From Geotalea daltonii FRC-32 (GTDB lineage Bacteria; Desulfobacterota; Desulfuromonadia; Geobacterales; Geobacteraceae), in NCBI RefSeq assembly GCF_000022265.1, contig NC_011979.1:1110001-1142000 (forward strand): DNA of 32,000 nucleotides. Reading direction: 5' to 3'. Below are positions 16,568-32,000 of the stretch, in pieces; the first letter of the stretch is position 1, and each line of letters begins with the position of its first letter. The notes under the pieces were generated by a model. The model was not told where the DNA came from and made no database searches. It saw only the letters and a program-made list of their open reading frames with translations. Both the position numbers and the translations under genes were made by a program.

Positions 16568-16575
16568 GGCTCCCC

Positions 16576-18567
16576 ATGAAGAATCCTCTCAGGCAAATCG
16601 GCAGCATCCCGGCCCCGGCCTGGCGGGGCCTGATCGGCATGCTCGTCACTGTCCTCATGGTGGTGTTGATGCTCCGCCAGTTCTACCCCCTGGAACTGCT
16701 GGAGATGAAACTTTTCGACACCGGCTTCAAGCTCCGCGGCGCCGTCACCTCTCCCGAAGCTGTCGCCATTGCCGAAATAGACGAAAAAAGCCTGCAGAAA
16801 ATCGGCCGCTGGCCCTGGGATCGGTCAGTGATGGCCCGTCTGGTGGATCGCCTTGCCGAGGCTAATGTCGCCGTCATTGCCTTCGATGTCATTTTTTCGG
16901 AAGCCGATGAAAGCGACCCCCTCTTTGCCAAAGCCATCAGCAGGGCCGGCAATGTCATCCTTCCCATAGTGTTCGATTTTCACGGGTCTCCAGCCGGTAA
17001 ACCGGATCCGCTTCTTGATACCTCCTCCTATAGCAACATTAAAAATCGGCACCTTCTGAATGATTTTGTTCCCCCCTCGGCAAATAGGGTCAATCTCCCT
17101 GTTCCAGCATTGAGCCATGAAGCCATGGGCTTTGGCCACATCAGCATGCTCCCGGACAGCGACGGCACCATGCGCTGGGAGCCGCTCGTCGTCTCCTGCG
17201 GTGGCCGCTACTTTTCCCCCCTTGGGTTGCAGGCGGCAGCCTATTTCCTCGGCGTGCCCCCGGAAAGCATCACCGTCAGGGCAACGGAGTCAGTTACCGT
17301 CGGACAGACTGTCATTCCTACCGATGTCTGGGGACGCACCATCATCAACTATTATGGCCCCGGCGGCTCCTTTCCCCATTATTCCATCAGCGACATCCTC
17401 GACGGTACCGTCCCGGCGAAGCAGCTTGAGAACCGGGTCATCCTGATCGGAGCTACCGCTCCCGGCATCTATGACCTGCGGGTAACCCCCATGGCGGCGG
17501 CCATGCCCGGGGTCGAAAAACATGCCGCCATCGCTGCCTCCATCATAGATCGTTCCTTCATCCGCAAAGTATCTGGTATTGCCGATCTGGCGGTACTTAT
17601 CGGCAGCGGCCTGCTCCTGACACTGATCCTCAGCCGGCGGAAGATCGTCGGTGCCATAACGGCAACGGCTGTAGGTATGCTGGCACTCTTCATCTCCGGC
17701 TACCTGCTCTTCAGCCTGAAGGGCATCTGGCTCAATCTGGCCTATCCCAGCAATAACCTGCTCTTCATCTTCATCGGCGTTACTGCCTTCAACTATGCCT
17801 TCGAGGAGCAGCGGGCCAGGAAAATCAGGGCCATGTTCTCCAACTATGTCACCCGCACCATCGTCAACGAGCTGATTGACAACCCGGAGATGGCGAAGCT
17901 TGGGGGGGAGCGGCGAGAGGTGACGGTGCTGTTCAGCGACCTGGTGGGGTTTACCACCTTTTCCGAGCAGCACTCGCCCGAGGAGGTGGTGGCGATCCTC
18001 AATGAATACCTGGGGGCAATGACCGACGTCATTCTCAAGTGGCAGGGGACCCTGGACAAGTTCATCGGCGACGCCATCGTCGTCTTCTGGGGGGCGCCCC
18101 TGCCGGCGGCGGACCACGCCGAGCGGGCCATCGGCTGCGCCGCGGAAATGGCCAGGGAGATGAAGCGATTGCGGGAAAAGTGGCTGGCGGAGGGAAAAAC
18201 GGCGCTCCACGCCGGCATCGGCATCAATACCGGCGAAGTGCTGGTGGGGAACATCGGCGCCCTGGGCAAGAAGATGGATTACACCGTCATCGGCGACCAG
18301 GTGAATCTTGGCTCCCGGGTGGAATCCCTGACCCGCCACTACCAAGTGCCGATCCTCATCACCGCCAACACCGTAGCCAAGCTCTGCGGTAGGGAGCCGG
18401 ATGTAAGGTTGTCAGGGCTGTCCATCCACGGTATTGAACGGGTGATTGTCAAGGGGAAGGAAGAGCCGGTTGGACTTTACCGCCTGGAGGAACAGCCGGA
18501 CCCCTCCCAGTCCCTTGTTATCGAAGACTGCCCCGAGGGGGCGGTGGTTCGATTTGCGGAGAAATGA
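16576..18567 (+). CDS. CHASE2 sensor domain - transmembrane - class III adenylate/guanylate cyclase
   Basis: ATG at 16576 lies 8 nt after the GspE stop; the track start at 16402 would overlap GspE by 166 nt. The CHASE2 signature is IAEIDEKSLQKIGRWPWDRSVMARLVDRL...IAFDVIFSE. Cyclase motifs are VTVLFSDLVGFT, KFIGDAIVVFWGAP and YTVIGDQVNLGSRVE. Confidence 0.85.
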   Translation: MKNPLRQIGSIPAPAWRGLIGMLVTVLMVVLMLRQFYPLELLEMKLFDTGFKLRGAVTSPEAVAIAEIDEKSLQKIGRWPWDRSVMARLVDRLAEANVAVIAFDVIFSEADESDPLFAKAISRAGNVILPIVFDFHGSPAGKPDPLLDTSSYSNIKNRHLLNDFVPPSANRVNLPVPALSHEAMGFGHISMLPDSDGTMRWEPLVVSCGGRYFSPLGLQAAAYFLGVPPESITVRATESVTVGQTVIPTDVWGRTIINYYGPGGSFPHYSISDILDGTVPAKQLENRVILIGATAPGIYDLRVTPMAAAMPGVEKHAAIAASIIDRSFIRKVSGIADLAVLIGSGLLLTLILSRRKIVGAITATAVGMLALFISGYLLFSLKGIWLNLAYPSNNLLFIFIGVTAFNYAFEEQRARKIRAMFSNYVTRTIVNELIDNPEMAKLGGERREVTVLFSDLVGFTTFSEQHSPEEVVAILNEYLGAMTDVILKWQGTLDKFIGDAIVVFWGAPLPAADHAERAIGCAAEMAREMKRLREKWLAEGKTALHAGIGINTGEVLVGNIGALGKKMDYTVIGDQVNLGSRVESLTRHYQVPILITANTVAKLCGREPDVRLSGLSIHGIERVIVKGKEEPVGLYRLEEQPDPSQSLVIEDCPEGAVVRFAEK

Positions 18568-18905: not shown

Positions 18906-18985
18906 CCATTAATATTGATTTTCTCAGCATTATTGTGTATGCCGTCAAATTAGTTCTAAACCAAATAACCTTACAGGAGGGTGTA

Positions 18986-21900
18986 GTGAAGGGACTCAAA
19001 ACACTCTTTTTCTTTTTGTTCATTCTGATAAGTCATGCTCTGCCGTCTTTTGCAGATACTACGGTAGGAGGTGTCATTTCCACGGATACAACCTGGACTC
19101 TGGCCGGTAGCCCTTATAATGTCACTTCAACTGTTCAGGTGTATGGGACCAGTACCACAGCAGCTACCCTCACCATAGAACCTGGCGTTGTGGTTAAATT
19201 TGCTTCCAATACCGTATTGCAGATAGGAAGTGGTGCCAGTCAGGGAGCACTAATCGCAAAAGGGACGACGACAGAGAGAATTATCTTCACCCGAAGCGGC
19301 ACAACCGGTACATGGGCAGGTCTTACCTATTATGACGGCACTGTGGATGCAACCTCAGTAATCGAAAATGCCGATGTCCAGTACAATAGCGGGTTAAATA
19401 TCACATCTGCTTCGCCTGCTTTCAGAAACTGCACCCTAACTCACATGACGGGCTATGCTAGCTTTTCTAATAGTAATCCTGTGCTGGAGAATGTCGCTAT
19501 TACCAACAACAGCAGCTACGGCATCTACCTCAACTCCTCATCGCCCATCATTACCGGCGGCAGCTTAACCAACACCAGCACCACCGGCCATGGCATTTAT
19601 GGCAGCGGCTCTCCAACATTTTCCAATTACAGCGTCTCCATCGTCAACAGTGCAGGCAAATATGGGCTCTATCAAAGCAGTACGACCTCAGCCCTTAGTG
19701 TTACCAACTCTACCATCGCCAATGGCATTTACCTTGGCTCCACCGGCATCATCCCGACTATCACTGGCAACACCTTCACTAATTTGGATAACTCCCCCCT
19801 TCATGCGGGAGCCAATATCATTGCCCAGATCATCGCCAACAACACCCTGACCGGCCAGACCTTTGCCGGCAAGATCGAGGTGGTAGGCGAGCAGATAAAC
19901 AGGGACACACTGTGGCGGAAACAGATTGCGCCTTATGTGATTTCAGGAGCCATTTACGTATACAAAGATACCATTTCGCCTGCTACTCTGACTATCGAGC
20001 CAGGAACAACAATTAAATTATTTGCAGGCGGTAGCGGGCTATACATAGGAAGTGGTGCCAATCAAGGGGCACTAATCGCAAAAGGGACGACGACGGAAAG
20101 GATTACATTTACCCGGAGCGGCACTAGCGGTACATGGGCAGGCCTTACCTATTATGACGGGGCTGTGGATGCAACATCAGTAATCGAGAATGCCGACATC
20201 CAATATACCACCGGCTTTAGTATCAACTCCGCTTCACCTGTTTTTAGAAACTGCACCATAACAGACATGACGGGCTATGCTAGCTTTTCTAATAGTAACC
20301 CGGTGCTGGAGAATGTCACTCTTACCAACAACGGCAGCTACGGTATCAATCTTTCTGCCTCATCGCCCATCATTACCGGTGGCAGCCTAACCAACACCAA
20401 CACCAACACCACCGGCCATGGTATTTATGGCAACGGGGCACCGGTCATTACGAATTACAATGTCTCTATGGTCAATAGCACTGGCAAGTACGGCCTTTAC
20501 CTGAACAGTTCCACTTCAATGTTGTCAGTCACGAACTCAACCATTGCCAATGGCATCTACCTCGCATCCACCGGCATTACCCCGACCGTTACCGGCAATA
20601 CCTTCACTAATCTGGATAGCTCTCCGATCCATGTAGGGGCGAACATAGTCGGGCAGCTTATAGCCAACAACGCCCTAACTGGCCTTACTTCAGGCGGCAG
20701 AATCGAGATCGTGGGCGAACAGGTGAACCGTAATGTAACCTGGAGCCCACTGGCAGCTCCGTATCACGTGGTCTCCGGCACTGTTTCCGTCTACAACACC
20801 ACGACAACCGCCTCGACCTTGACCATTGCACCGGGAACCGTCATCAAGTTTGCGACCAGCACCGGACTTCAGATCGGCAGTGGCACGAACCAGGGGGCAT
20901 TGATAGCCCAGGGAACACCATCAAATCGTATCACCTTCACCCGAAGCGGCATCAGCGGTACATGGGCAGGCCTTACCTATTATGACGGCACTGTGGATGC
21001 AACATCAGTAATCGAAATTGCCGACATTCAATATACCACCGGCTTTAGTATCAACTCCGCTTCACCTGTTTTTAGAAACTGCACCATAACAGACATGACG
21101 GGCTATGCTAGCTTTTCTAATAGTAACCCGGTGCTGGAGAATGTCACTCTTACCAACAACGGCAGCTACGGTATCAATCTTTCTGCCTCATCGCCCATCA
21201 TTACCGGTGGCAGCTTAACCAATACCAACACCACCGGTCATGGCATTTACGGAAGCGGCTCTCCAACAGTTTCCAATTACAGCGTCTCCATCGTCAATAG
21301 CACTGGCAAGTACGGCCTTTACCTGAACAGTTCCACTTCAATGTTGTCAGTCACGAATTCAACCATTGCCAATGGCATCTACCTCGCATCCACCGGCATC
21401 ACCCCTACCATCACCGGCAATACCTTCAGCAATGGGGATAATTCGCCACCCCATGCAGGGGCTGCCTTGATAAACCGGATTTTGTCTGAAAACACCTTCA
21501 GCGGACTTACCGCAACCGGCAAAATCGAGGTTGTCGGGGAGTATCTGACGCAAAACACTCTTTGGAAGAAGTGGGTAGCACCATATATTGTTCTCGGCAA
21601 TGTCTATGTTTTTAAGGACACCGTCACCACCGCTACCCTGACCATCGATCCGGGAGTCGTGGTGAAATTTAACACAAACACCTCGCTGCAGATTGGTTCG
21701 GGATCTTCCAGGGGGTCCATCATTGCCGATGGAGGGACGGCAGCGATCACCTTTACTTCCAGTCAGGGTACGCCTACTGCCGGAAGCTGGTCGGGTATAA
21801 CCTTCTCCGGTGACTCTGCCAGCGGCAGTATATTGAATAACATTGTCGTCGAATACGGAGGCTCAGGAGGGTACTACAATAACGCAAACGTTGTCTTTAA

Positions 21901-24391
21901 TTCTTCTTCGCCAGTGATCCGTAATTCCACAATCAGAAACAGTGCCGGAAGCGGCATCTATGTATATGGTGCACAAAACATCCCTCAGGTGGTTGGTTGC
22001 ACGGTTACAGCCAACAAGTGGGGTGTTTATGCCACTTCTTCAAACCCTTACATCGTCAATTCACGAATCTACGGCAATTCCACCGCAGGTGTATGGAACA
22101 GTTCCACGACTGTAGATGTTGACGCAAGAAATAATTGGTGGGGGGCAGACTCCGGACCAACCCATGCAAGCAACCCTTCCGGCACCGGCAACAGCGTCAG
22201 CGACAAGGTACTCTACAATCCTTGGATTGGCCAGACTCCAGGGACTGGAGTGACTTTCAGCAATGTCAAGGTTTCGCCAGCAGCGTTCAATCCTGATGGG
22301 GATTATCTCACCTTCGGGGCATTCATCTCCGCCAATGCCAACTGGACCATCACTATCACCGACAGCGGAAATAACGTCGTCAGAATTTTCACCGGCTCCG
22401 GCACTTCCATCAGTCAGAGATGGTTTGGCGAAGACAGCCAGTCTGTGAAAGTAGCGGATGGAAATTATACCTACAAGATAGAAGCGGTAAATCCTGCGAC
22501 TTTGGAAGCGGCCTCTCCCTTACAAGGAACCGTAAAGGTATTCCGCCAACTTCCTGTGGCCATTCTCGATGTGCCGACTGATGATCAGATCTTTTCCGGC
22601 GGGACCATCGTCAATGTTACCGGCACCGCCTCCGATCCTACCGATTTCAAGAACTACACCCTTGAGTATGGGGCAGGAGACAACCCGATTTCCTGGAGTG
22701 CCCTTAGGAGCGCAACAGTTCCAGTGCAAGGTAACCTTTTGTATGCCTGGGACCTCACCAATGCCACTGGAGGCGTATACACCCTGCGCCTCACCGTCAC
22801 CGATAATGCCGGGAATGCAACAGTAAAAGCGGCACGCATCAGGCTCCTCTGGATTCAGAATGCAAATTCGTCGGAGACTTACCTTTCACCGAACGGCGAT
22901 GGTACCAAGGATTCGTCGCTACTTAGCGCGACGGCCAGCTACCCGGTCAATTGGTCCGTAACGTTAAGCAACTCAACCGGTACTGTAGTGAGGACTTTTA
23001 CTATGCCGGGAAGTTCTTCCTTCAGCCAGACTTGGGACGGCCGGGATTCAGGAAATGTTGTTGTTCCTGACGGCACATACACCTATACGTTTAATGCCCT
23101 TGATCCTGTGTCCTTACTTGGAGCTTCTCCCAAAACAGGTAACATAAAGGTAGATAGTACGCTGCCCACTGTTTCCGTAACGGCGCCATTTCCCGGCGGA
23201 ATGCTGCAGAACACCGTAACCATCACCGGAACGGCAGCGGATACCAATTTGGATAACTACACAGTGGAGTATGGGTTAGTGTCGAGTGCAGGGGCGTGGA
23301 CTCTCCTTGCTTCATCGGGCACGCCAGTTACCTCTGGCACTCTGGCCGTCTGGATAACCAATGATCTTAAGAACGTGGTCAAGCTGCAAAATGGTGACTA
23401 TCAGCTCAGATTGACTGCTGTGGATAAGGCGGGAAATAGCTCCATAACCACTATCCCGGTAACGGTGGATAATCTTATTCTTTCATCCATATCAGTCAGC
23501 CGGAACACCTTAAACACAGCTTTAGGTGAATCAACAACCATCCCGTTCACCATCAACCGCTCGGGTACTGTGACGCTGAATGTCATACCCGAGAAACTCG
23601 GCTCCAATGGCACTCCCGTATATCAAGCCTCAATAAACTGTCTTGCAGCCGGCAACTATGCCTTTACCTGGAACGGCGCCGACTCGACCGGTAAAACAGT
23701 ACCAGATGAAGCATATCTTTATATCCTGAATGCTGTCGACGGAACAAGAACCGACGGCTACTCTCCGCCATATCCGAACGGCCCCGGAAGTGTCACCTGT
23801 ACCCAGAGCACGTATAACCCTCTGAAGAATCTGCCCATGACGGTGACATATACTCCGTCGCTGCCATCTCGGATCAATATGAGCATTGCCTGGGGAACCA
23901 AAAGGTACAAGATGATGGATGCAGTGCCGACATTGGCAACAACCGGCACCTTTGATTGGTTCGGAATGGACCCTGCCCAGCAAATAATGGCCAATGGCGC
24001 TTTTGCAACCTGCACGGTTGCATCGCTTCTGCCGGAAAACTTCCTGATGACTATTGGAGACATGCCCAAAGTGACCATGTTGAAAACAGACCCTTATGAA
24101 ATTTCGCTTTCATATGGGCAGTTCACCAGAATAGAATACACAGTTTCCAGGGAATCGAATGTAACCATCAAGGTTGTCTCCCCAAGTGGTATTGCGGCAA
24201 CTCTGCAAAATAATCTGCTTCAGCCGGCAGGTACTTATGAAATGGAATGGACACTTGCCGATCTTAGTGATGCATTCGGGAAGAACTTTGCTGTATCGGA
24301 AGAGGGGGATTATGCTGTCAGCATACATGCGACCAATCCCGTTACCGGCACTTACTCAATCACAAAAGGCAACCTTAGGGTCGGGCTTTGA
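18986..24391 (+). CDS. giant secreted protein: four right-handed parallel beta-helix (CASH/NosD-like) modules followed by FlgD-Ig-like and Ig-like beta-sandwich modules
   Basis: GTG at 18986 lies 6 nt after AGGAGG. Signal peptide is VKGLKTLFFFLFILISHALPSFA|DT. Repeated beta-helix rungs are present (NCTIT, NSNPVLENV, SSPIITGG, NSTIANGIYL) with an NNWWG cap. FlgD-Ig-like blocks are present (FNPDGDY..., LSPNGDGTKD...WDGRDSGNVVVPDGTYTY). Confidence 0.8.
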   Translation: MKGLKTLFFFLFILISHALPSFADTTVGGVISTDTTWTLAGSPYNVTSTVQVYGTSTTAATLTIEPGVVVKFASNTVLQIGSGASQGALIAKGTTTERIIFTRSGTTGTWAGLTYYDGTVDATSVIENADVQYNSGLNITSASPAFRNCTLTHMTGYASFSNSNPVLENVAITNNSSYGIYLNSSSPIITGGSLTNTSTTGHGIYGSGSPTFSNYSVSIVNSAGKYGLYQSSTTSALSVTNSTIANGIYLGSTGIIPTITGNTFTNLDNSPLHAGANIIAQIIANNTLTGQTFAGKIEVVGEQINRDTLWRKQIAPYVISGAIYVYKDTISPATLTIEPGTTIKLFAGGSGLYIGSGANQGALIAKGTTTERITFTRSGTSGTWAGLTYYDGAVDATSVIENADIQYTTGFSINSASPVFRNCTITDMTGYASFSNSNPVLENVTLTNNGSYGINLSASSPIITGGSLTNTNTNTTGHGIYGNGAPVITNYNVSMVNSTGKYGLYLNSSTSMLSVTNSTIANGIYLASTGITPTVTGNTFTNLDSSPIHVGANIVGQLIANNALTGLTSGGRIEIVGEQVNRNVTWSPLAAPYHVVSGTVSVYNTTTTASTLTIAPGTVIKFATSTGLQIGSGTNQGALIAQGTPSNRITFTRSGISGTWAGLTYYDGTVDATSVIEIADIQYTTGFSINSASPVFRNCTITDMTGYASFSNSNPVLENVTLTNNGSYGINLSASSPIITGGSLTNTNTTGHGIYGSGSPTVSNYSVSIVNSTGKYGLYLNSSTSMLSVTNSTIANGIYLASTGITPTITGNTFSNGDNSPPHAGAALINRILSENTFSGLTATGKIEVVGEYLTQNTLWKKWVAPYIVLGNVYVFKDTVTTATLTIDPGVVVKFNTNTSLQIGSGSSRGSIIADGGTAAITFTSSQGTPTAGSWSGITFSGDSASGSILNNIVVEYGGSGGYYNNANVVFNSSSPVIRNSTIRNSAGSGIYVYGAQNIPQVVGCTVTANKWGVYATSSNPYIVNSRIYGNSTAGVWNSSTTVDVDARNNWWGADSGPTHASNPSGTGNSVSDKVLYNPWIGQTPGTGVTFSNVKVSPAAFNPDGDYLTFGAFISANANWTITITDSGNNVVRIFTGSGTSISQRWFGEDSQSVKVADGNYTYKIEAVNPATLEAASPLQGTVKVFRQLPVAILDVPTDDQIFSGGTIVNVTGTASDPTDFKNYTLEYGAGDNPISWSALRSATVPVQGNLLYAWDLTNATGGVYTLRLTVTDNAGNATVKAARIRLLWIQNANSSETYLSPNGDGTKDSSLLSATASYPVNWSVTLSNSTGTVVRTFTMPGSSSFSQTWDGRDSGNVVVPDGTYTYTFNALDPVSLLGASPKTGNIKVDSTLPTVSVTAPFPGGMLQNTVTITGTAADTNLDNYTVEYGLVSSAGAWTLLASSGTPVTSGTLAVWITNDLKNVVKLQNGDYQLRLTAVDKAGNSSITTIPVTVDNLILSSISVSRNTLNTALGESTTIPFTINRSGTVTLNVIPEKLGSNGTPVYQASINCLAAGNYAFTWNGADSTGKTVPDEAYLYILNAVDGTRTDGYSPPYPNGPGSVTCTQSTYNPLKNLPMTVTYTPSLPSRINMSIAWGTKRYKMMDAVPTLATTGTFDWFGMDPAQQIMANGAFATCTVASLLPENFLMTIGDMPKVTMLKTDPYEISLSYGQFTRIEYTVSRESNVTIKVVSPSGIAATLQNNLLQPAGTYEMEWTLADLSDAFGKNFAVSEEGDYAVSIHATNPVTGTYSITKGNLRVGL
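19067..21535 (+). repeat. three in-frame tandem repeats of 819/828/822 bp inside the giant gene
   Basis: Units start at 19067, 19886 and 20714; the degenerate fourth module starts at 21536. 20201-20386 and 21029-21214 are identical over 186 bp by my base-by-base reading. Confidence 0.9.
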
Positions 24392-24451
24392 TTTGAAATG
24401 GTTGAAATATACTATAACCATATGATGAGACATACAATGTGGAGATATTAA

Positions 24452-25156
24452 ATGAGGATGATTGGAATCAAGATAATATTATTTATTTTGCTCTGGCTGG
24501 CCTTTGCCTCTTTGACTTCTGTCACGCCTGCTTATGCAGTTACTCCCTGTCAGAGTATCCAGCAGCAGGTAGACTTGTATTTGAATAACCCCCCAAGCAT
24601 ATATTGCAAATACACTCCCGAGTTCGGGGAGTCGGAAGTAAAGATTTGGCGGGATTGTGATTATCGGCCGGCAGCTATTAAAACAGTTACCTATTCACCT
24701 GGCACTATAAATTATACCCAAAGTGGTACAGTAACCTGTTGCTATCCGGACCGTAACTGCTATCTTCCTGAGAATCAATATAAAGATACCTATACGAACA
24801 CTTATTACAAGACCATTGTAAAGAATGAATACTGTGATGGACACATTACAACCAATGAATATTCATACGGTATGAATTGGATATATAACTATGCTTCATA
24901 CACTGGATATTGTGCTACCCCTGGCAGTAGCAATTTACAGACTTATGTTGTGCCTCAACATGAGGATTCTGCGGCATATTGTGCGTCTCAAGTAACGCGC
25001 TATCTCTATACCACCATATCCATTCCGGCTAATTGTAATGACTGTTATGATTCTTCCGACCCCTGTTGCGGCAGCACCGATAAATGTTGTGGCAAGGGCC
25101 CCTGTTGTGGTGATCCCTGCTGTGGTGATGTCTGCTGCCAGAACCAAGGGGAATAG
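24452..25156 (+). CDS. secreted Cys/Tyr-rich protein with C-terminal (CC-x3-4)5 tail; unknown family
   Basis: GGAGA RBS 6 nt upstream. Signal peptide ends PAYA|VTPCQ. The mature part has 21 Cys, and the tail is PCCGSTDKCCGKGPCCGDPCCGDVCCQNQGE. It lies 60 nt after the giant gene and 68 nt before the RHS gene. Confidence 0.7.
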   Translation: MRMIGIKIILFILLWLAFASLTSVTPAYAVTPCQSIQQQVDLYLNNPPSIYCKYTPEFGESEVKIWRDCDYRPAAIKTVTYSPGTINYTQSGTVTCCYPDRNCYLPENQYKDTYTNTYYKTIVKNEYCDGHITTNEYSYGMNWIYNYASYTGYCATPGSSNLQTYVVPQHEDSAAYCASQVTRYLYTTISIPANCNDCYDSSDPCCGSTDKCCGKGPCCGDPCCGDVCCQNQGE

Positions 25157-25224: not shown

Positions 25225-28200
25225 ATGCTCAGATGGTCAAAGAATTTTTCTCATAGTTTTTGTTTTCTTTTAACAATTACATCACTGTCGGTGTTTCCTG
25301 TTTGTGCCCATGCAGGAACGGATGCGAAAAGTGCCGACGAAGCCGCTATCCAAGCTCTCAGCGCAGAAGGCAGCGATGCTGGCACCAACAATCCCGCCTA
25401 TGCCGGCAAACCTGTAAGTCTAAATGGCGGTGCAGAAACATTTCAACGGACAGACCTGACCTTAGGCAATCTGTTACCCATCAGCATCAAGCGCCGTTAC
25501 AACAGCAAATCAGGTTATGACAGCCCCTCCGGCTACGGCTGGGCGCACAACTACGACAAGCGCCTGTACACCTATTCCGACGGATCAGTAGTCATTCGCA
25601 AAGAGACCGGCTGGAAGCGTCAGTTTACTCCATCAGGAGTAGGATTTATCACCCCTGTCGGTGAGACCGGAATCCTTACCATCAACCAAGACGGCAGCTA
25701 CACCTATACGGAAAAAGACGGCGGCAAAGAACTTTATGATCCGAAGGGCCGTTTAGTGAAAATGACAGATCCCAATGGGAGTTACCTGATTCTCAGCTAC
25801 GAATCTGCCACCAGGTTCAGTCTGTGGGGCCTCCTTCCTTGGAATATCAATCAGACGAATCCCCTGAAGGTCGCCTATGACTATCATCTGAGCAGGATCG
25901 ATGAATTCACCCCCTCCGGAACCACCACCGGCGCATGGGTCACCTTCCAGTACGACACATCTACCGGCAGGCTTACCAGCATCAGTGACAGCCTGGGAAG
26001 AAACGTCACCTATGGGTACGACACCATCGGCAACCTTGCCTCAGTTGTCACGCCCCTTAGCTCCGCCCAGTATGCATACACAGACCCCACCAACAAGCAC
26101 CTGATGACCACGGTCGACGAAGGAGACGGCCCTTATGCAAACACCTACGACAAGGCCGGACGAGTCGTTCGCCAGACCCACGGCACAGGGCAGATCGACA
26201 TCGAATACACCGTCCCCAGAAAAACAACCAAAGTCACCACCACCATAAAAGATGGCACCGGTCTGTTGCTCAATACCAACATCCGCACCGTCGAGTTCGA
26301 CGACAATGGCCAGGTAGCCAAAGAAACAGACACATTGGGCAACGTGACCACATATATCCGTAATCAACAGACCTGGATCACCCGCAAAGAGCAGTGGGAG
26401 AATACCGGCACCATAGCCAGTCCGACGCTCGTACTGAAAGCAGCCATAAATTATACCTACGACAGCATCGGCAATGTACTTACCAGCACTCAGGCGCCGG
26501 GCACACCCCAAGAAAAGCAAGCTATCTATACCTACGACCCCACCTTCAATCATCAAACCAGCGAAAGCGCAGCCAGCGTCGTCAACCCGGCAATCAGCAA
26601 GATAACCAGCCATACTTACGACAGCAAAGGCAATCGCCAGAGCACCACCGAGACCGGCCTGCTCGGAGATGGCACCCCATACAGCTACGCCACTACCTAT
26701 GAAAACGATGCCAATGGCAGAGTGACAAGGATCGACGGCCCCCGCACCGACGTGCAGGACGTCACTACCTTTACCTATGACGCCAACGGCAATATGCTGA
26801 CAAAGACCGAAGCCTTAATCGGCACCACCCGTTATGACAACTACGACGCCCTGGGCAACCCAGGCACCATTACCGATCCAAACGGCAATGCCACCACCTA
26901 CACCTATGACACCGCAGGCAGGGCACTATTCGTCAAAGCCCCCGGAGACATAAACCCCACCGAATACACCTATACCACCGGCGGGTGTGGCAGCTGCGGC
27001 GGATCAACCAACCGCATCGCCTCCATCATCCAGCCCGAAGGAAACCGTATCGACTATACCTATGACACCAACGGCAAACTGACCAAGATTGCCGATAGCC
27101 AGAATAACAGCATCAACTACAGCTACGACAGCGAAGGGAACAAACTGAAAGAAGAGATCAAAGATCCGTCAGGCATCCTGCAAAAGACCATCAGCTACCA
27201 ATACGACGTCATCAACCGCCTCAAGCAGATCAAAAACCCCGATGCCACCTACACCGAATTCGGCTACGACGCCCTCGGCAACCGAACCAGCAGCAAAGAC
27301 CCCAAACAAAACCTGACCACCAGCCAGTACGACGCCCTGAGCCGCCTCACCGCCACCATCCAGCCCGGCAATGTCACCACCGGCTTCACTTACGATACAA
27401 ATAACAACCTGACCACCGTAACCGACGCCAACAGCAACAGCACCACCTACAAATACGACGATCTGGGCAGGGTCTACCAGACCATCTCCCCTGATACCAA
27501 CACCACCACCTACAGTTATGACCCTGCAGGCAATCTCAAAACCAAGACCGACGCAAAAGGCATTATCATTGCTTACACCTACGACGACGCCAATAGGCTC
27601 ACCAGAACAAGCTTCCCCACAGACCCCGCCATCACCTACAGCTACGACACCTGTATAAATGGCAAGGGAAGAGTCTGCACCATCACCGACCAGAGCGGCA
27701 CAACCACCTACGAGTACACCAAGAAGGGACAGATAGCCAAAGAGACCAGAACCATCGACGGCATTGCCTACATCACCCAGTACACCTACGACATGAACGG
27801 CAACACGAAAACGATCATCTACCCGAGCGGCAGGGTTATCACCTACAGCTACAGCAACGACAAGCCTACCACCGTCAGCAGTACCTACGCAGGCATAACC
27901 ACCACAATAGCAAACAACATAAGTTACAAACCCTTCGGCGGGATGACAGCACTTACCTACGGCAACGGTTTAGCAAGAACCATCACCTACGACAACCAGT
28001 ACCGCATCAGCACCATGATTACCGGCACCCTGCAAAACCTCACTTACGGCTACGACGCCAACGGCAACATCACCGCTATCACCAATACTCTCGACAATAC
28101 CAAGAACAAGAGTTATACCTACGACAGCCTCGACCGGCTCGGCAGCGGCACCGGCCCATGGGGCACCATCACCTGGACATATGACGGCGTCGGCAACAGG

Positions 28201-29271
28201 CAAACCCAGATCGACAGCAGCGGCACCAGCAGCTACAGCTATCAGTCCGGCAGCAACAGGCTAACAGGAATCACAGGAGCAAACCCAGCAACCTTCGGCT
28301 ACGACACCAACGGCAACACAGCAACTGAAAACGGCAAGATCTACACCTATAACCAGAATCAGCGATTGATCCAGGCAGCAGCAAATGAGACCGGCAGCTA
28401 CAGTTACAACGCCCAGGGCCAACGCACCAAGAAGACCGTCAATGGCGTCACCACCTATTTCATCTTCGACCAGCAAGGGCAACTGTTAACCGAATCAGCC
28501 ACCAATGGCACACAAGCGGAATACATCTACCTGAGCAACCAGCCACTGGCCAAGATCGACGCCACCGGCACGAACTATGTCCACACCGATCATCTGGGCA
28601 CGCCTACCATGATGACCGATGCGGCCGCAACAAAAGTTTGGGAGATAGAGGCCAGACCATTCGGGGACAGTGCAAACATTACCGGCACAGCCTCTCTTAA
28701 TCTTCGCTTCCCAGGCCAGTACGCAGATAGTGAATCAGGGTTAAACTACAATTACTTCAGGGATTACAATCCAGGCATTGGTAGGTATATCCAAGCTGAT
28801 CCGGTTGGGCTAGATGAGGGCGTCACTCTGTTCATTTATTCTGGTAACGATCCCATTTTGAACGAAGATCCTCTAGGTTTGTGGGTAAAAAGGTGTTCGA
28901 GAGCACTTGGGAATAAAAATAAACCTAAGACTTCCAAATACAACCCTTTAAGGCATGACTACTTGAGTGTAAGCGGTACATTCGTTGGATTTCAGAGGGG
29001 TAGCAACATGCTTTGGAGTAAAGGAAGGGTAGATGTAGGTAAGGATAAAGAAGAAGATAACGGCAAATGCCATACTACAATTTGTAGTGATGACAGATTC
29101 GATAAGTATGTTATGGCGTTTGTGGACTATGCTCCAACTTATTGCATAGCAGCTAACCCAGACACAATACAACATGCTGCTGGTGCCAGAAACTGCCAAA
29201 CTTGGGCAGATACAGTTATAAAAAAGGCAAAAGAGAATTACAGAAAGAATGAAACCTGCCCAAAGTGCTAA
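25225..29271 (+). CDS. RHS/YD-repeat protein with N-terminal Sec signal peptide and C-terminal polymorphic toxin domain
   Basis: AGGAGG RBS. Signal peptide ends CAHA|GTD. Dozens of YD repeats follow the pattern YxYDxxGNxxxxxD. The RHS-associated core end reads PGQYADSESGLNYNYFRDYNPGIGRYIQADPVGL...NEDPLGL. Confidence 0.92.
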   Translation: MLRWSKNFSHSFCFLLTITSLSVFPVCAHAGTDAKSADEAAIQALSAEGSDAGTNNPAYAGKPVSLNGGAETFQRTDLTLGNLLPISIKRRYNSKSGYDSPSGYGWAHNYDKRLYTYSDGSVVIRKETGWKRQFTPSGVGFITPVGETGILTINQDGSYTYTEKDGGKELYDPKGRLVKMTDPNGSYLILSYESATRFSLWGLLPWNINQTNPLKVAYDYHLSRIDEFTPSGTTTGAWVTFQYDTSTGRLTSISDSLGRNVTYGYDTIGNLASVVTPLSSAQYAYTDPTNKHLMTTVDEGDGPYANTYDKAGRVVRQTHGTGQIDIEYTVPRKTTKVTTTIKDGTGLLLNTNIRTVEFDDNGQVAKETDTLGNVTTYIRNQQTWITRKEQWENTGTIASPTLVLKAAINYTYDSIGNVLTSTQAPGTPQEKQAIYTYDPTFNHQTSESAASVVNPAISKITSHTYDSKGNRQSTTETGLLGDGTPYSYATTYENDANGRVTRIDGPRTDVQDVTTFTYDANGNMLTKTEALIGTTRYDNYDALGNPGTITDPNGNATTYTYDTAGRALFVKAPGDINPTEYTYTTGGCGSCGGSTNRIASIIQPEGNRIDYTYDTNGKLTKIADSQNNSINYSYDSEGNKLKEEIKDPSGILQKTISYQYDVINRLKQIKNPDATYTEFGYDALGNRTSSKDPKQNLTTSQYDALSRLTATIQPGNVTTGFTYDTNNNLTTVTDANSNSTTYKYDDLGRVYQTISPDTNTTTYSYDPAGNLKTKTDAKGIIIAYTYDDANRLTRTSFPTDPAITYSYDTCINGKGRVCTITDQSGTTTYEYTKKGQIAKETRTIDGIAYITQYTYDMNGNTKTIIYPSGRVITYSYSNDKPTTVSSTYAGITTTIANNISYKPFGGMTALTYGNGLARTITYDNQYRISTMITGTLQNLTYGYDANGNITAITNTLDNTKNKSYTYDSLDRLGSGTGPWGTITWTYDGVGNRQTQIDSSGTSSYSYQSGSNRLTGITGANPATFGYDTNGNTATENGKIYTYNQNQRLIQAAANETGSYSYNAQGQRTKKTVNGVTTYFIFDQQGQLLTESATNGTQAEYIYLSNQPLAKIDATGTNYVHTDHLGTPTMMTDAAATKVWEIEARPFGDSANITGTASLNLRFPGQYADSESGLNYNYFRDYNPGIGRYIQADPVGLDEGVTLFIYSGNDPILNEDPLGLWVKRCSRALGNKNKPKTSKYNPLRHDYLSVSGTFVGFQRGSNMLWSKGRVDVGKDKEEDNGKCHTTICSDDRFDKYVMAFVDYAPTYCIAANPDTIQHAAGARNCQTWADTVIKKAKENYRKNETCPKC
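28882..29268 (+). other. 129-aa C-terminal toxin domain of the RHS protein (after DPLGL, residues 1220-1348)
   Basis: It begins right after the DPLGL motif (28867-28881). The DNA turns AT-rich here, unlike the RHS core. It contains RHDYLSVSG and ARNCQTWAD (His-then-Cys order) plus CHTTIC and CPKC. Confidence 0.7.
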
Positions 29272-29281
29272 CGGAGGAACA

Positions 29282-29704
29282 ATGGCAGAAATTAAAGAAC
29301 TAATACTTGCTTTGTTTTTTGCACAAACTATTATACTGACCCAATCACCAATTTCAATCAGTGAAAATTGGACAGATGTGCCACTCAACAAGCCGTTAAA
29401 GGTAATAAATGAAGGTGCAACATTGTATGTAGATGTTACAGAAATATCGAAACTAGAAAGAAATATAGAAAAACTAGATAAGATGTTCCCAAAACATTGT
29501 CTTATTGCGATATTGCAAGACAAAAATGGACAGAGTTTCACTTTTATGAACGAAAGTGCCTACTCGTTTACCAATAAGAACACTTCACTCATATTAGTCA
29601 GCAGTAGCAGGCTAGATAAAAAAACACCGTTTATCAAGCTGAAAGTCAAAAGTTCTGTCAGGTTAAAAAATGTCAAAATTAGTTGGTCTAACTACGAGAA
29701 GTAA
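29282..29704 (+). CDS. candidate cognate immunity protein (140 aa) with N-terminal hydrophobic segment
   Basis: ATG at 29282 is preceded by GGAGG, 10 nt after the RHS stop. It has the same AT-rich composition as the toxin domain. The N-terminus is MAEIKELILALFFAQTIILTQSP. The position is typical of RHS immunity genes. Confidence 0.55.
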   Translation: MAEIKELILALFFAQTIILTQSPISISENWTDVPLNKPLKVINEGATLYVDVTEISKLERNIEKLDKMFPKHCLIAILQDKNGQSFTFMNESAYSFTNKNTSLILVSSSRLDKKTPFIKLKVKSSVRLKNVKISWSNYEK

Positions 29705-29724
29705 CTTATATGCAAATAAACGAG

Positions 29725-29750
29725 CCTGTAAAATCGTTTGTGTAAATGGC
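29725..29750. repeat. IS256-family left inverted repeat
   Basis: CCTGTAAAATCGTTTGTGTAAATGGC compared with the reverse complement of the right end, CCTGTAAATAATTTTGTGTAAATGGC. Confidence 0.75.
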
Positions 29751-29784
29751 CATATTCGGTTATCACCAACCGAAGGAGAAACTG

Positions 29785-31000
29785 ATGGCCACTACCGACG
29801 AACTGCTTGATGCACTGATGAAAGACTACAAGAAGCCCGAAGACCTAATTGGCGAGAATGGGCTTCTGAAACAACTGACCAAGAAGCTGCTGGAGCGGGC
29901 AATGCAGGCCGAGATGACCGAGCATCTAGGCTACGAGAAGCACGCCCCCAACGGAGCCAACAGCGGTAACTCCCGCAATGGCAGCTACAAGAAGACGGTC
30001 AAAGGAGATTTCGGCAACCTTGAAATGACAGTCCCTCGGGACCGCCAGTCATCCTTCGAGCCGATCATCGTCCCCAAAGGAGAGAGCCGCTTTACCGGCT
30101 TCGATGACAAGATCATCTCCATGTATGCCCGTGGCATGACCACGCGGGATATTCAGGGGCACCTGGAGGAAATCTACGGTGTAGAAGTCTCCCCAACCCT
30201 GGTATCACAGGTCACCCAAGCCGTTACCGAAGAAATTACCCTATGGCAGAATCGCCCGCTTGATGACGTGTACCCGATCATGTACCTCGATGCCGTGCGG
30301 GTTAAAGTCAGGCACGAAGGACGGGTGATCAACAAAGCTGTTTACCTGGCCATTGCCGTTACCTTCACCGGGGTCAAAGAAAGTCCTCGGCATGTGGACT
30401 GCCGAAACCGAGGGTGCCAAGTTCTGGCTCCAGGTAGTTACGGAACTGAAGAACCTAGGCGTCAAGGACATCTTCATCGCCTGCGTCGATGGACTCAAAG
30501 GCTTCCCTGAGGCCATCGAAGCGGTATTTCCTAAAACCCAGGTTCAGCTCTGCATCGTCCACATGGTGCGCCACAGCCTGAATTACGTGTCCTGGAAGCA
30601 GCGCAAGGAAGTTGCCGACGATCTGAAGCAGATCTACCAGGCAGCAACCCTGCAGCAGGCCGAAGCGAATCTGGAAGCATTCGAAACCAAGTGGAGTGCC
30701 ACCCATCCGACCATCGGCAAATCGTGGTGCAGGAACTGGGAGCGGATCATTCCCTTCTTCTCCTATCCGCCTGAAATCCGGAAAGCCATTTATACAACCA
30801 ACGCCATAGAATCGCTGAACATGTCGCTGCGGAAGGTCACCAAGAACCGGGCATCATTCCCAAACGACGAAGCTATGCTGAAACTGCTCTACCTAGCCCT
30901 GAAGAACATCGAGAAAAAGTGGACTATGCCGATCAGAGACTGGAAATCGGCACTCAACCAGTTCACCATTATGTTTGAAGAAAGAATGCCTGCTCTTTAA
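29785..31000 (+). pseudogene. IS256-family transposase split into two frames by a +1 frameshift
   Basis: The N-terminal part MATTDELLDALMKDYKKPEDLIGENGLLKQLTKKLLERAMQAEMTEHLGYEKH... runs in the frame of 29746..30510. The C-terminal part ...KKVLGMWTAETEGAKFWLQVVTELKNLGVKDIFIACVDGLKGFPEAI... runs in the next frame (30353..31000). Removing one G from GGGG at 30370-30373 would join them as AVTFTG-SKKVLGMW. Confidence 0.75.
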
Positions 31001-31007
31001 ACCGAAA

Positions 31008-31033
31008 GCCATTTACACAAAATTATTTACAGG
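31008..31033. repeat. IS256-family right inverted repeat
   Basis: GCCATTTACACAAAATTATTTACAGG is the reverse-complement partner of 29725-29750. Confidence 0.75.
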
Positions 31034-31100
31034 ACCCCCCAGCGGGTTTCACTTTTTTCCTAAAAACAACTTTGTCGATTTAATAATTCCTTTCCTGGTT

Positions 31101-31343
31101 GTGTGGGCTGCCTCCTTTGTTTATACCGGCATAATAGGCGGGATACTTTGGATGCCTTTACATAAATTTAAATCAGACAACATTCTAACATACATCCTTA
31201 TTGCCATTGTATTCACATCTTTATTGTCACTTGGCACGAATCATGGTGTATCGCTATTGGGGATAGGCATGAGTTCAACAAATGCAATAATGATAAGATT
31301 GCTAGAAATTAAGATATTCAAACTCAGTAATAAAGCCACCTGA
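31101..31343 (+). CDS. small hydrophobic (2-3 TM) ORF; true start uncertain and possibly truncated by the IS
   Basis: The frame is open from inside the IS (30975) to 31343. The part outside the IS (31034 onward) has no convincing RBS; the first in-frame start outside the IS is GTG at 31101. An open frame of about 100 codons in very AT-rich DNA is unlikely by chance. Confidence 0.25.
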   Translation: MWAASFVYTGIIGGILWMPLHKFKSDNILTYILIAIVFTSLLSLGTNHGVSLLGIGMSSTNAIMIRLLEIKIFKLSNKAT

Positions 31344-31450
31344 CAGCCTGGCTCCGATATCGGAAAGTGAGCCTTTTTCATCAGCGTCTAAGCCCCCATC
31401 AGGAGCTTTGCACTGGCACAGGACTCAAAATATTAGAAACAGAGGTGCTC

Positions 31451-32000
31451 ATGGTGATTTTTAATATGAGAGCAATAATAGTCGTGGCTGCATTGCTTCA
31501 AGCAGTGCCAGTATATGCCGATACTCCGTGCCAAGCTCTTCAACGACAACTAGATTACTATTTACATGACATTATTGGTTGTCACTATACTGCGGAGTAT
31601 AGTGATAGAAATATAAATATCTATAAAGAATGTGATCCACCACCAACCGTCAAAACTATCACTTATTCAGCCGGTGGAGTCACTCGCACTGTAACTGATA
31701 CAGCACAATGCTGTAGTAAATCTCCTTGTTATGAACGAGATAGGTATTATGAGGAATTTACCACCATTTATTACAACACTCGGGTTGAATACGCATATTG
31801 TGATAACACTTCAACAGTTGAAGAATTCGGGTATGGAGCTTTTCCTGAATATCCATTCGTGTCTTCAGCAATATGTGGCATAACATATCCTATTAGACCA
31901 CCCACTGTTTTAACTTATGGTTGTCCAAGTCCCCAAAAAACCTTAGAGGCAACCTTAGATATCCCACCCGAATGTAAGTGTTTAGATCCGAATGATCCTT
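31451..32000 (+). CDS. paralogue of the Cys/Tyr-rich secreted protein (24452..25156); 3' end cut by the window edge
   Basis: Not in the ORF track because it has no stop in the window. My translation gives MVIFNMRAIIVVAALLQAVPVYA|DTPCQALQRQLDYYL...KTITYS...CC...YCD...YG...IPPECKCLDPNDP, 183 codons with no stop. It aligns with PAYA|VTPCQSIQQQVDLYL...KTVTYS...CC...YCD...YG...IPANCNDCYDSSDP. Confidence 0.7.
   Translation, partial: MVIFNMRAIIVVAALLQAVPVYADTPCQALQRQLDYYLHDIIGCHYTAEYSDRNINIYKECDPPPTVKTITYSAGGVTRTVTDTAQCCSKSPCYERDRYYEEFTTIYYNTRVEYAYCDNTSTVEEFGYGAFPEYPFVSSAICGITYPIRPPTVLTYGCPSPQKTLEATLDIPPECKCLDPNDP

Follow-up and report, generated by a model that had tools for sequence, protein, structure and literature searches.

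To our knowledge, the exit of an RHS cocoon from the cell and its delivery are understood for three cases only: the Rhs proteins of the T6SS (type VI secretion system), the Tc toxins and, in part, WapA of Gram-positive bacteria. Many diderm genomes carry RHS genes that encode a signal peptide and have no known delivery route. A canonical Rhs toxin is a single chain in which an N-terminal delivery domain comes first, the DUF6531 plug with the YD shell second and a C-terminal toxin last. In the Rhs proteins described so far, DUF6531 forms the N-terminal plug of the RHS shell and has an autocleavage site at its N-terminus, and Tse5, RhsA, Rhs1, TseI and WapA cleave themselves at this edge (PMC10684867, PMC12704120). 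The canonical N-terminal (NT) fragments cut off at the plug junction stay associated with the shell and vary while the shell is conserved, and in Tse5 it is the plug that keeps the terminal part of the released fragment fixed within the shell (PMC10684867, PMC12704120). The 32,000-nucleotide (nt) stretch of Geotalea (Geobacter) daltonii FRC-32 analysed here (contig NC_011979.1, positions 1,110,001 to 1,142,000; referred to as the window, with positions counted from its first letter) includes the gene Geob_1033, an open reading frame (ORF) at 24452-25156 on the + strand that encodes 234 amino acids (aa) plus stop and is annotated as a hypothetical protein. The gene of this cysteine-rich protein lies between two others of the same orientation, one for a giant exported protein of 1818 aa upstream (18935-24391, +) and one for an RHS/YD-repeat toxin of 1348 aa with a signal peptide of its own downstream (25225-29271, +). 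With a probability of about 0.5, Geob_1033 is the trans-encoded N-terminal module of this toxin, which would be a Sec-exported RHS polymorphic toxin independent of the T6SS.

Geob_1033 is read as an N-terminal module encoded in trans because natural fusions place its body domain at the plug junction and its gene lies directly 5' of the RHS gene. The body domain, as delimited by alignment and by the AlphaFold model, spans aa 30-195 (24539-25036, +), and domains homologous to it stand at the N-termini of three metagenomic RHS proteins, P0008, P0010 and P0014, each of which consists of a signal peptide and the body domain followed in one chain by DUF6531 and RHS repeats. The E-values of these three relatives for the whole library were 1.7e-27, 2.9e-09 and 8.4e-05, respectively, and a pairwise BLAST comparison of Geob_1033 with P0014 gave 2e-06. 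In P0008 and P0010 the body joins DUF6531 directly, via a linker of ~20 aa. P0014, a complete RHS toxin of 1476 aa, has two FlgD_Ig-like repeats of ~85 aa between body and plug, which resemble the FlgD_ig domains of the giant protein (E 9e-5), and therefore the domain types of all three genes can share one chain. No giant gene was found 5' of the fusions in the readable DNA, which amounts to ~4 kb in locus L011, 10 kb in L016 and only ~1.2 kb in L014.

Stand-alone and fused forms differ in the Cys tail, which in Geob_1033 comprises aa 196-234 (25037-25153, +), with C198 and five CC doublets. It is present in all seven stand-alone members of the family and absent from all three fusions, and the tail of the stand-alone proteins aligns where the fusions run on into the DUF6531 plug. 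P0008 and P0010 read GPACGNS at the alignment columns of the first tail unit, DPCCGST, so that a single relic unit is left, and then continue into NLKSGNYYH, which is the start of DUF6531. A body of the Geob_1033 type is found encoded directly N-terminal of the plug both ways, by fusion in P0008 and P0010 and by adjacent gene order in the window.

The RHS protein of the window begins with MLRW...VCAHA, followed by GTD after the putative cleavage site, and includes DUF6531, 13 RHS repeats, the RHS core and a DPLGL autocleavage motif (Pfam RHS_repeat, DUF6531 and RHS; NCBIfam Rhs_assc_core). Its DUF6531 plug (aa 61-131; 25405-25617, +) was placed by Pfam and by alignment to solved Rhs proteins, in which the segment AGKPVSLNGGAETFQRTDLTLG aligns with AGDPVSLVTGAE of RhsP (8h8b) and with TGDPIDVTTGQ of Rhs1/Tre23 (7pq5). 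In four of the five split RHS proteins the conserved plug start is reached 3-5 residues after the signal peptide, and in that of the window after 32 residues. Because the plug start follows the signal peptide almost at once, the split RHS proteins are shells without an N-terminal delivery fragment. Pfam and NCBIfam scans disclosed neither PAAR nor any other delivery domain ahead of the plug of the window RHS, and none of the known delivery domains (PAAR, prePAAR/transmembrane, LXG, cell-wall binding) in Geob_1033 or in the RHS N-terminus.

Wherever the flanks of an orthologous locus could be read, the genes stand in the order giant protein, Cys-rich protein, DUF6531-RHS protein, and the loci that share this order with the window are L002, L003/L004/L009, L005, L006/L010/L015 and L008. 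The orthologous giant proteins encoded directly 5' of the Cys-rich genes are 57-71% identical to that of the window. A position immediately upstream of an RHS gene had been singled out as unusual in the original prediction, and its conservation in all orthologues with readable flanks indicates that it is not accidental. In the window the gaps between the giant gene, Geob_1033 and the RHS gene are 60 and 68 nt, no terminator-like site occurs between them on the + strand, a GGAG sequence lies 7 nt 5' of the Geob_1033 ATG, and all three products begin with what reads as a signal-peptide-like sequence. The three genes are probably co-transcribed. Locus L001 departs from this arrangement. It shares the family member P0002 with L002, and at both loci two ORFs, of 1166 and 297 aa, make up the giant gene. 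Downstream of P0002, L002 has a complete DUF6531-RHS gene; L001 has in its place a pair of reverse-strand ORFs of unknown family and then an orphan C-terminal fragment of an RHS gene.

A small gene next to an Rhs gene could also encode an immunity protein, or a T6SS Rhs chaperone or adaptor of the EagR/DUF1795, DUF4123 or DUF2169 type. The toxin domains, with which an immunity protein would be expected to co-vary, differ between cassettes, being of an unknown family in the window and DUF4329 in L010, with a weak PLA2-like match in P0014. Geob_1033 is not an immunity protein, because it is kept at 46-53% identity from cassette to cassette while the toxin domain changes. Its gene lies upstream and not downstream of the toxin, where a separate candidate immunity gene (29249-29704) is present; it has a signal peptide and 21 Cys, unlike the cytoplasmic T6SS chaperones, and it has no match in Pfam, NCBIfam or PADLOC. 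An identity as immunity protein or chaperone was therefore rejected on its position, its signal peptide and its independence from the toxin type, and is considered extremely unlikely.

The product of Geob_1033 contains 21 Cys (9.0%), with 10.7% Tyr, 9.8% Thr and 6.0% Asn. CC doublets begin at residues 96, in the body, and 205, 212, 218, 223 and 228, the last five lying within the final 30 residues (aa 205-234, encoded by nucleotides 25064-25153). The translation thus bears out the first reading of the 234-aa ORF, including the Tyr clusters YTNTYYKT, NEYSYG and IYNYASYTGY, the 21 Cys, the single CC of the body and the five C-terminal doublets. Around window 24001-25000, the ORF has a G+C content of 43%, compared with 52% in the window and ~50% in the neighbours, and the Tyr/Asn/Thr/Lys-rich makeup of the protein accounts for part of this low value.

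Judged from its sequence, the N-terminus, MRMIGIKIILFILLWLAFASLTSVTPAYA followed by VTPCQ, resembles a Sec signal peptide whose cleavage site is of the AxA type, and residues 3-23, within this putative signal peptide, are helical in the AlphaFold model. This Sec-type signal peptide would comprise aa 1-29 (...LTSVTPAYA, with cleavage before VTPCQ; 24452-24538, +), and a hydrophobic N-terminus ending in YA or HA is present in every member of the family, in agreement with the earlier description of the protein as secreted. The mature N-terminus (aa 30-43, window 24539-24580) carries a near-invariant T-x-C-Q-x-[IV]-Q-Q-x-V-D sequence in a predicted helix. The Cys beside conserved Gln residues in T-x-C-Q-x-[IV]-Q-Q is reminiscent of a thioester motif, but the spacing is unlike that of CGEQ, and the likeness is only noted.

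No named family had been recognised in the protein at the outset, and this held. The whole protein gave zero matches in Pfam, NCBIfam and PADLOC scans, the isolated body and the isolated tail gave zero Pfam families even at E<=10, and a profile search of the PDB sequences returned a single meaningless match (E 0.35). A literature search by the name Geob_1033 found no paper, one combining Rhs and Geobacter found nothing relevant, and one on the strings DPCCG and PCCGS found unrelated acronyms only.

Relatives are few. A word-indexed search of 5.8 billion proteins disclosed only four, at 46-53% identity, and its repetition with the wider alignment A2 gave the same five proteins and nothing further. 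When 1.84 billion cluster representatives were searched exhaustively with a profile, 12 matched, of which six (P0001, P0006, P0007, P0008, P0010 and P0014) are genuine relatives in the body domain, five share the tail repeat only, and one is short and probably spurious. The family is tiny, with six clusters in 1.84 billion representatives, and undescribed. A genome-contig scan with alignment A1 placed named relatives in the Geobacter metagenome-assembled genomes UBA698 and H2geo, the others being metagenomic, and a metagenome scan added one more copy of an already known locus. In locus L013 two family genes stand in tandem (L013:25-759 and 905-1237), the first of which, P0006, has a degenerate tail with one CC doublet.

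Alignment A2 comprises ten members, the seven stand-alone proteins and the three RHS fusions. None of the ten lacks C33, C52, C69, C128, C154 or C177, and C96 and C195 are nearly invariant. The four orthologues at 46-53% identity retain every body Cys and three tail CC doublets, each as D-P-C-C-G, and because of this conservation the pattern seen in Geob_1033 is not a product of chance; the fourth and fifth doublets are reduced to a single Cys in some orthologues. The suggestion that the CC tail be surveyed among homologues has in this way been answered, with three DPCCG units kept in the orthologues and a tail on every stand-alone member.

The structure of Geob_1033 was predicted with AlphaFold2 from the ten-sequence alignment, with a mean predicted local distance difference test (pLDDT) of 82.7 and values >90 over about aa 40-190. 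The body is modelled as an N-terminal helix (32-45) followed by long beta-hairpins (76-97 and 109-127) and shorter strands. Foldseek comparison of this model with PDB and BFVD gave best E-values of 0.03-0.05 with a TM-score of ~0.1 and a root mean square deviation >20 Å, which is no match; as modelled, the body fold is without a relative among the solved structures of PDB and the viral predicted structures of BFVD. Its confidently modelled beta domain holds 8-10 conserved Cys, and the body evidently depends on oxidative folding, with disulfides predicted within it.

Tyr/Thr/Asn-rich beta surfaces are common in carbohydrate binders, and the composition of the body could be taken to mean that Geob_1033 is secreted as a lectin, an adhesin or a small toxin in its own right, one that hitch-hikes in a mobile RHS island and would not act with the RHS protein. 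The G+C content of the ORF (43% versus 52% for the window), the transposases on the cassette flanks and a second copy, Geob_1037, without an adjacent RHS gene would all agree with this. It is nonetheless judged very unlikely, given that the body domain is fused to RHS in three relatives, that the gene order is strict at all orthologous loci and that the split RHS proteins have no N-terminal domain of their own.

The Cys count is odd in all seven mature stand-alone members (21, 19, 19, 21, 21, 17 and 21) and in the N-terminal regions of the fusions too (11, 11 and 17). Full intramolecular disulfide pairing is impossible with an odd count, which would fit a single bond between chains, an unpaired thiol or the ligation of metal. 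The original prediction had offered the tail as a possible handle for covalent attachment to a partner such as the RHS shell or the giant protein. The handle as such gains indirect support, since the tail occurs only in the stand-alone forms and aligns at the fusion junction; the covalent link does not. In the RHS shells the Cys come in local pairs, CxxC or Cx7C, with no conservation from one split system to another, and those of the giant proteins, 0-7 in number and 7 in the window, are not conserved either. A disulfide from the tail to the RHS or the giant protein was therefore dropped, with no conserved partner Cys visible in either.

The tail doublets of Geob_1033 are spaced 7, 6, 5 and 5 residues apart, and 11 Cys fall within 32 residues (C198-C229), which agrees with the ~30% Cys in CC, CxC or CxxC looked for in a metallothionein. 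Across the family, as counted by hand, the tail after C195 has 9 or 11 Cys in ~31 residues. The beta domain of mammalian metallothionein has 9 Cys (M3) and the alpha domain 11 Cys (M4), i.e. the same density and the same counts, and the tail might by this likeness be a thiolate cluster, in which the metal would either fold the tail or serve as its function. Geob_1033 would then be exported and would bind or depend on a metal (Cu, Zn, Cd or Fe), a role that would be compatible with one in an RHS complex. The odd Cys count of all seven mature stand-alone proteins and a tail without a fixed fold in AlphaFold, as would hold for an apo metal site, are consistent with it. So is the host, a strict anaerobe from metal-contaminated sediment, in which exported thiols can stay reduced. 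On the other side, no metallothionein or other metal-site model in Pfam matches the tail at E<=10, the tail is attached to an evidently disulfide-forming body in one compartment, and the numerical likeness may be a coincidence. To this is added that related arrays, described below, repeat rigidly every 7 residues, in as many as 21 units, always with the Pro and the Gly, and are modelled with locally high confidence (pLDDT 86.5), which looks like a structural repeat and not like a metallothionein. A metallothionein-like tail is considered unlikely.

These arrays were found in the five proteins that match the profile by the tail repeat only (P0009, P0011, P0012, P0015 and P0016), which are otherwise unrelated metagenomic proteins with runs of 5 to 21 strictly periodic heptads of the form P-C-C-G-[SN]-x-[DN], placed between domains or at the C-terminus. 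Export signals are visible in three of the five (P0011, P0012, which is lipoprotein-like, and P0015). By its sequence, the Geob_1033 tail is a short, compressed and degenerate version of this P-C-C-G-x-x-D heptad array. A word-indexed search with the tail-repeat consensus found nothing. Register-aligned windows of 12 heptads were modelled by AlphaFold with a mean pLDDT of 86.5, a predicted TM-score (pTM) of 0.40 and no helix or strand by DSSP, one of five models collapsing to 36.5, and Foldseek of the 12-heptad model against PDB gave no match at all. In this model the heptad array looks locally well defined, probably elongated and unlike solved structures, and the P-C-C-G heptad appears to be an undescribed Cys-doublet repeat in bacterial proteins.

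Disulfides are favoured over metal thiolates in the tail, because the body in the shared compartment needs them, because the arrays lie mostly in proteins with visible export signals and because a strict period marks a structural repeat. The tail is probably a disulfide-stapled connector, and confidence in any specific role for it is lower than in the reading of Geob_1033 as an RHS module.

Disulfides could also link one Geob_1033 chain to another. The tail has K-G-P-C-C-G-D and D-P-C-C-G units, and GPCCG is reportedly the cystine knot of type III collagen, said to be used for covalently linked trimers; by analogy, inter-chain P-C-C-G knots would give covalent dimers or trimers with several heads. 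The two papers on this knot, Mechling & Bachinger 2000 and Boudko et al. 2008, are listed among the references of PMC13138384. An odd Cys count conserved in all members would supply the inter-chain bond, and with no partner Cys in the neighbouring proteins, self-linking would be the simplest use of a free Cys. No Gly-X-Y triple-helix sequence occurs anywhere in Geob_1033, however, a 7-residue period is incompatible with the collagen helix, and the high local confidence with which single-chain AlphaFold models the long arrays suggests an intramolecular fold. Oligomerisation through such a knot is regarded as distinctly unlikely.

For Geob_1033 as the N-terminal module of the RHS toxin, the following mechanism is proposed. 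The giant protein, Geob_1033 and the RHS protein would each be exported via Sec, and would meet and assemble outside the cytoplasm, where the RHS shell would enclose the toxin as in Rhs proteins generally. The beta-rich, disulfide-braced body of Geob_1033 would be a functional head for docking or target binding and would fill the role of the N-terminal fragment of other Rhs proteins. The tail would be a compact Cys-stapled connector that replaces the missing peptide link and tethers the head to the RHS plug, to the giant protein or to both, and the giant beta-helix/Ig protein may be the surface carrier or an adhesin. We infer a physical association of the three proteins. More tentatively, and with some doubt, the cassette might represent an undescribed tripartite RHS delivery system of diderms, T6SS-independent and Sec-dependent, made of a giant carrier, a plug-first cocoon and a head of novel fold joined by a P-C-C-G-x-x-D heptad rod (with vicinal-Cys disulfides or metal) that would also form stalks of up to ~20 units in unrelated exported proteins.

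Several observations weigh against the assignment of Geob_1033 as a module of the RHS toxin. The sample is small, about 10 proteins, several of them from one genus. Neither the RHS nor the giant proteins showed a conserved partner Cys, and the tail is modelled with low confidence, at a pLDDT of 35-58 and with no fixed fold. Tail, split arrangement and giant gene are found together throughout, and the partner of the tail could be the giant protein rather than the RHS protein. The paralogue Geob_1037 keeps a full tail without a directly adjoining giant or RHS gene in the readable DNA. Last, the two heptad-array contexts that were looked at, locus L017 among them, have no RHS nearby, and because the heptad occurs in such proteins the tail is a generic module and not an RHS-specific handle.

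The second copy, Geob_1037 (P0007; 226 aa), starts at 31451 on the + strand and runs past the window end at 32000. The gene is also carried by the Logan contig L012 (L012:3675-4355), which is 100% identical to window 27777-32000. Its product shares 39% identity with Geob_1033 and repeats the Cys pattern of the body, its tail has five CC doublets, and its tail DNA is 77% identical to that of Geob_1033. Geob_1037 comes after the RHS gene, the putative immunity gene and a transposase fragment of the Mutator family (29746-30510, +; Pfam Transposase_mut, profile positions 11-196 of 379). The ORF of this fragment overlaps a second one (30353-31000), and the two probably represent a frameshifted or decayed insertion sequence element. 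The ORF that follows Geob_1037 in L012 begins with VADHQKLGSYPWSGH and is presumably transposase-like.

The C-terminal toxin domain of the window RHS follows the DPLGL motif (aa 1220-1348, 129 aa; 28882-29268, +). It contains 7 Cys, ends in ...NETCPKC and has no Pfam match even at E<=10. The ORF directly 3' of the toxin (29249-29704, +), of 151 aa as listed and with its true start probably at an internal Met at 29282, is presumably the immunity gene; its product has a hydrophobic N-terminus and no significant family match in Pfam scans. A toxin domain with 7 Cys together with a downstream ORF of hydrophobic start suggests a toxin/immunity pair acting outside the cytoplasm.

The giant protein, the first of the cassette, has a signal-like N-terminus and contains, according to Pfam, four right-handed beta-helix blocks (Beta_helix/NosD), FlgD_ig, PKD and Big Ig-like domains and a P_proprotein-like C-terminus. 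A reading of it as cargo of a type IX secretion system was not adopted, as its CHU_C matches overlap internal FlgD_ig domains and are not C-terminal. On the 5' side of the cassette (14264-18567) lie a GAF-MshEN-T2SSE ATPase gene (14264-16567), whose product is an MshE-like ATPase of secretion or pili, of the cyclic di-GMP (c-di-GMP) type, and a gene for a CHASE2 adenylate/guanylate cyclase. A terminator-like hairpin at 18527-18545 parts these two genes from the cassette, and nothing links them to it.

Among Cys-rich families, the tail shares with metallothionein, granulin, the collagen III knot and the keratin-associated proteins a dense Cys content with vicinal CC at 5-8 residue spacing. Its order from C195, C-C-CC-CC-CC-CC-CC, is similar to the granulin ladder, C-C-CC-CC-CC-CC-C-C. 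Its spacings of 2, 6, 5, 4, 3 and 3, however, leave shorter loops than those of granulin (CX5-6CX5CCX8CCX6CCX5CCX4CX5-6C), and there is no Pfam granulin match. The strict 7-residue period of the heptad with invariant P, C, C and G is found in none of the listed families, and the likenesses to metallothionein, granulin and collagen III are leads, not memberships.

The ABC (Tc) toxins are alike in having the gene of a very large protein beside an RHS cocoon with a polymorphic toxin, the two being joined by an adaptor. The giant protein of the cassette differs in being a beta-helix/Ig-repeat surface protein without TcA-type Pfam matches, the RHS protein has no TcB-type domains (SpvB, FG-GAP propeller), and all parts are predicted to be Sec-exported. 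A second parallel is the teneurin ectodomain (EGF/Cys-rich, Ig-like TTR, FN-plug, NHL, YD shell), in which Cys-rich N-terminal modules mediate covalent dimerisation. P0014 has the comparable order Cys-rich, Ig-like, plug, YD shell and toxin-like C-terminus, and TEN_YD-shell matches were found on RHS proteins of the loci. No sequence or structure similarity of the Cys-rich domain to EGF or to the teneurin Cys-rich region was found, and the parallel is architectural only.

The closest systems are the canonical Rhs NT parts, namely the PAAR NT of Tse5, RhsA, Rhs1 and RhsP and the NCWB of WapA, and the fusions put the Geob_1033-type body at the same site ahead of DUF6531. In contrast to these, Geob_1033 is encoded apart from the RHS protein and has its own signal peptide, and hence is not a product of autoproteolysis, it is without a PAAR, transmembrane or cell-wall-binding domain, its fold has no detectable relative, and its Cys-heptad tail is on no described NT fragment. 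Its host, unlike the Gram-positive bacteria with WapA, is a diderm. The three-gene set makes the junction of head and plug genetically separable, with the natural fusions indicating the partner, and the heptad repeat could serve as a small, rigid, cross-linked spacer. Thus, Geob_1033 is best understood as adding a trans-encoded variant to the known Rhs N-terminal modules, with nothing categorically new, and the most original element of the cassette is the P-C-C-G heptad connector.

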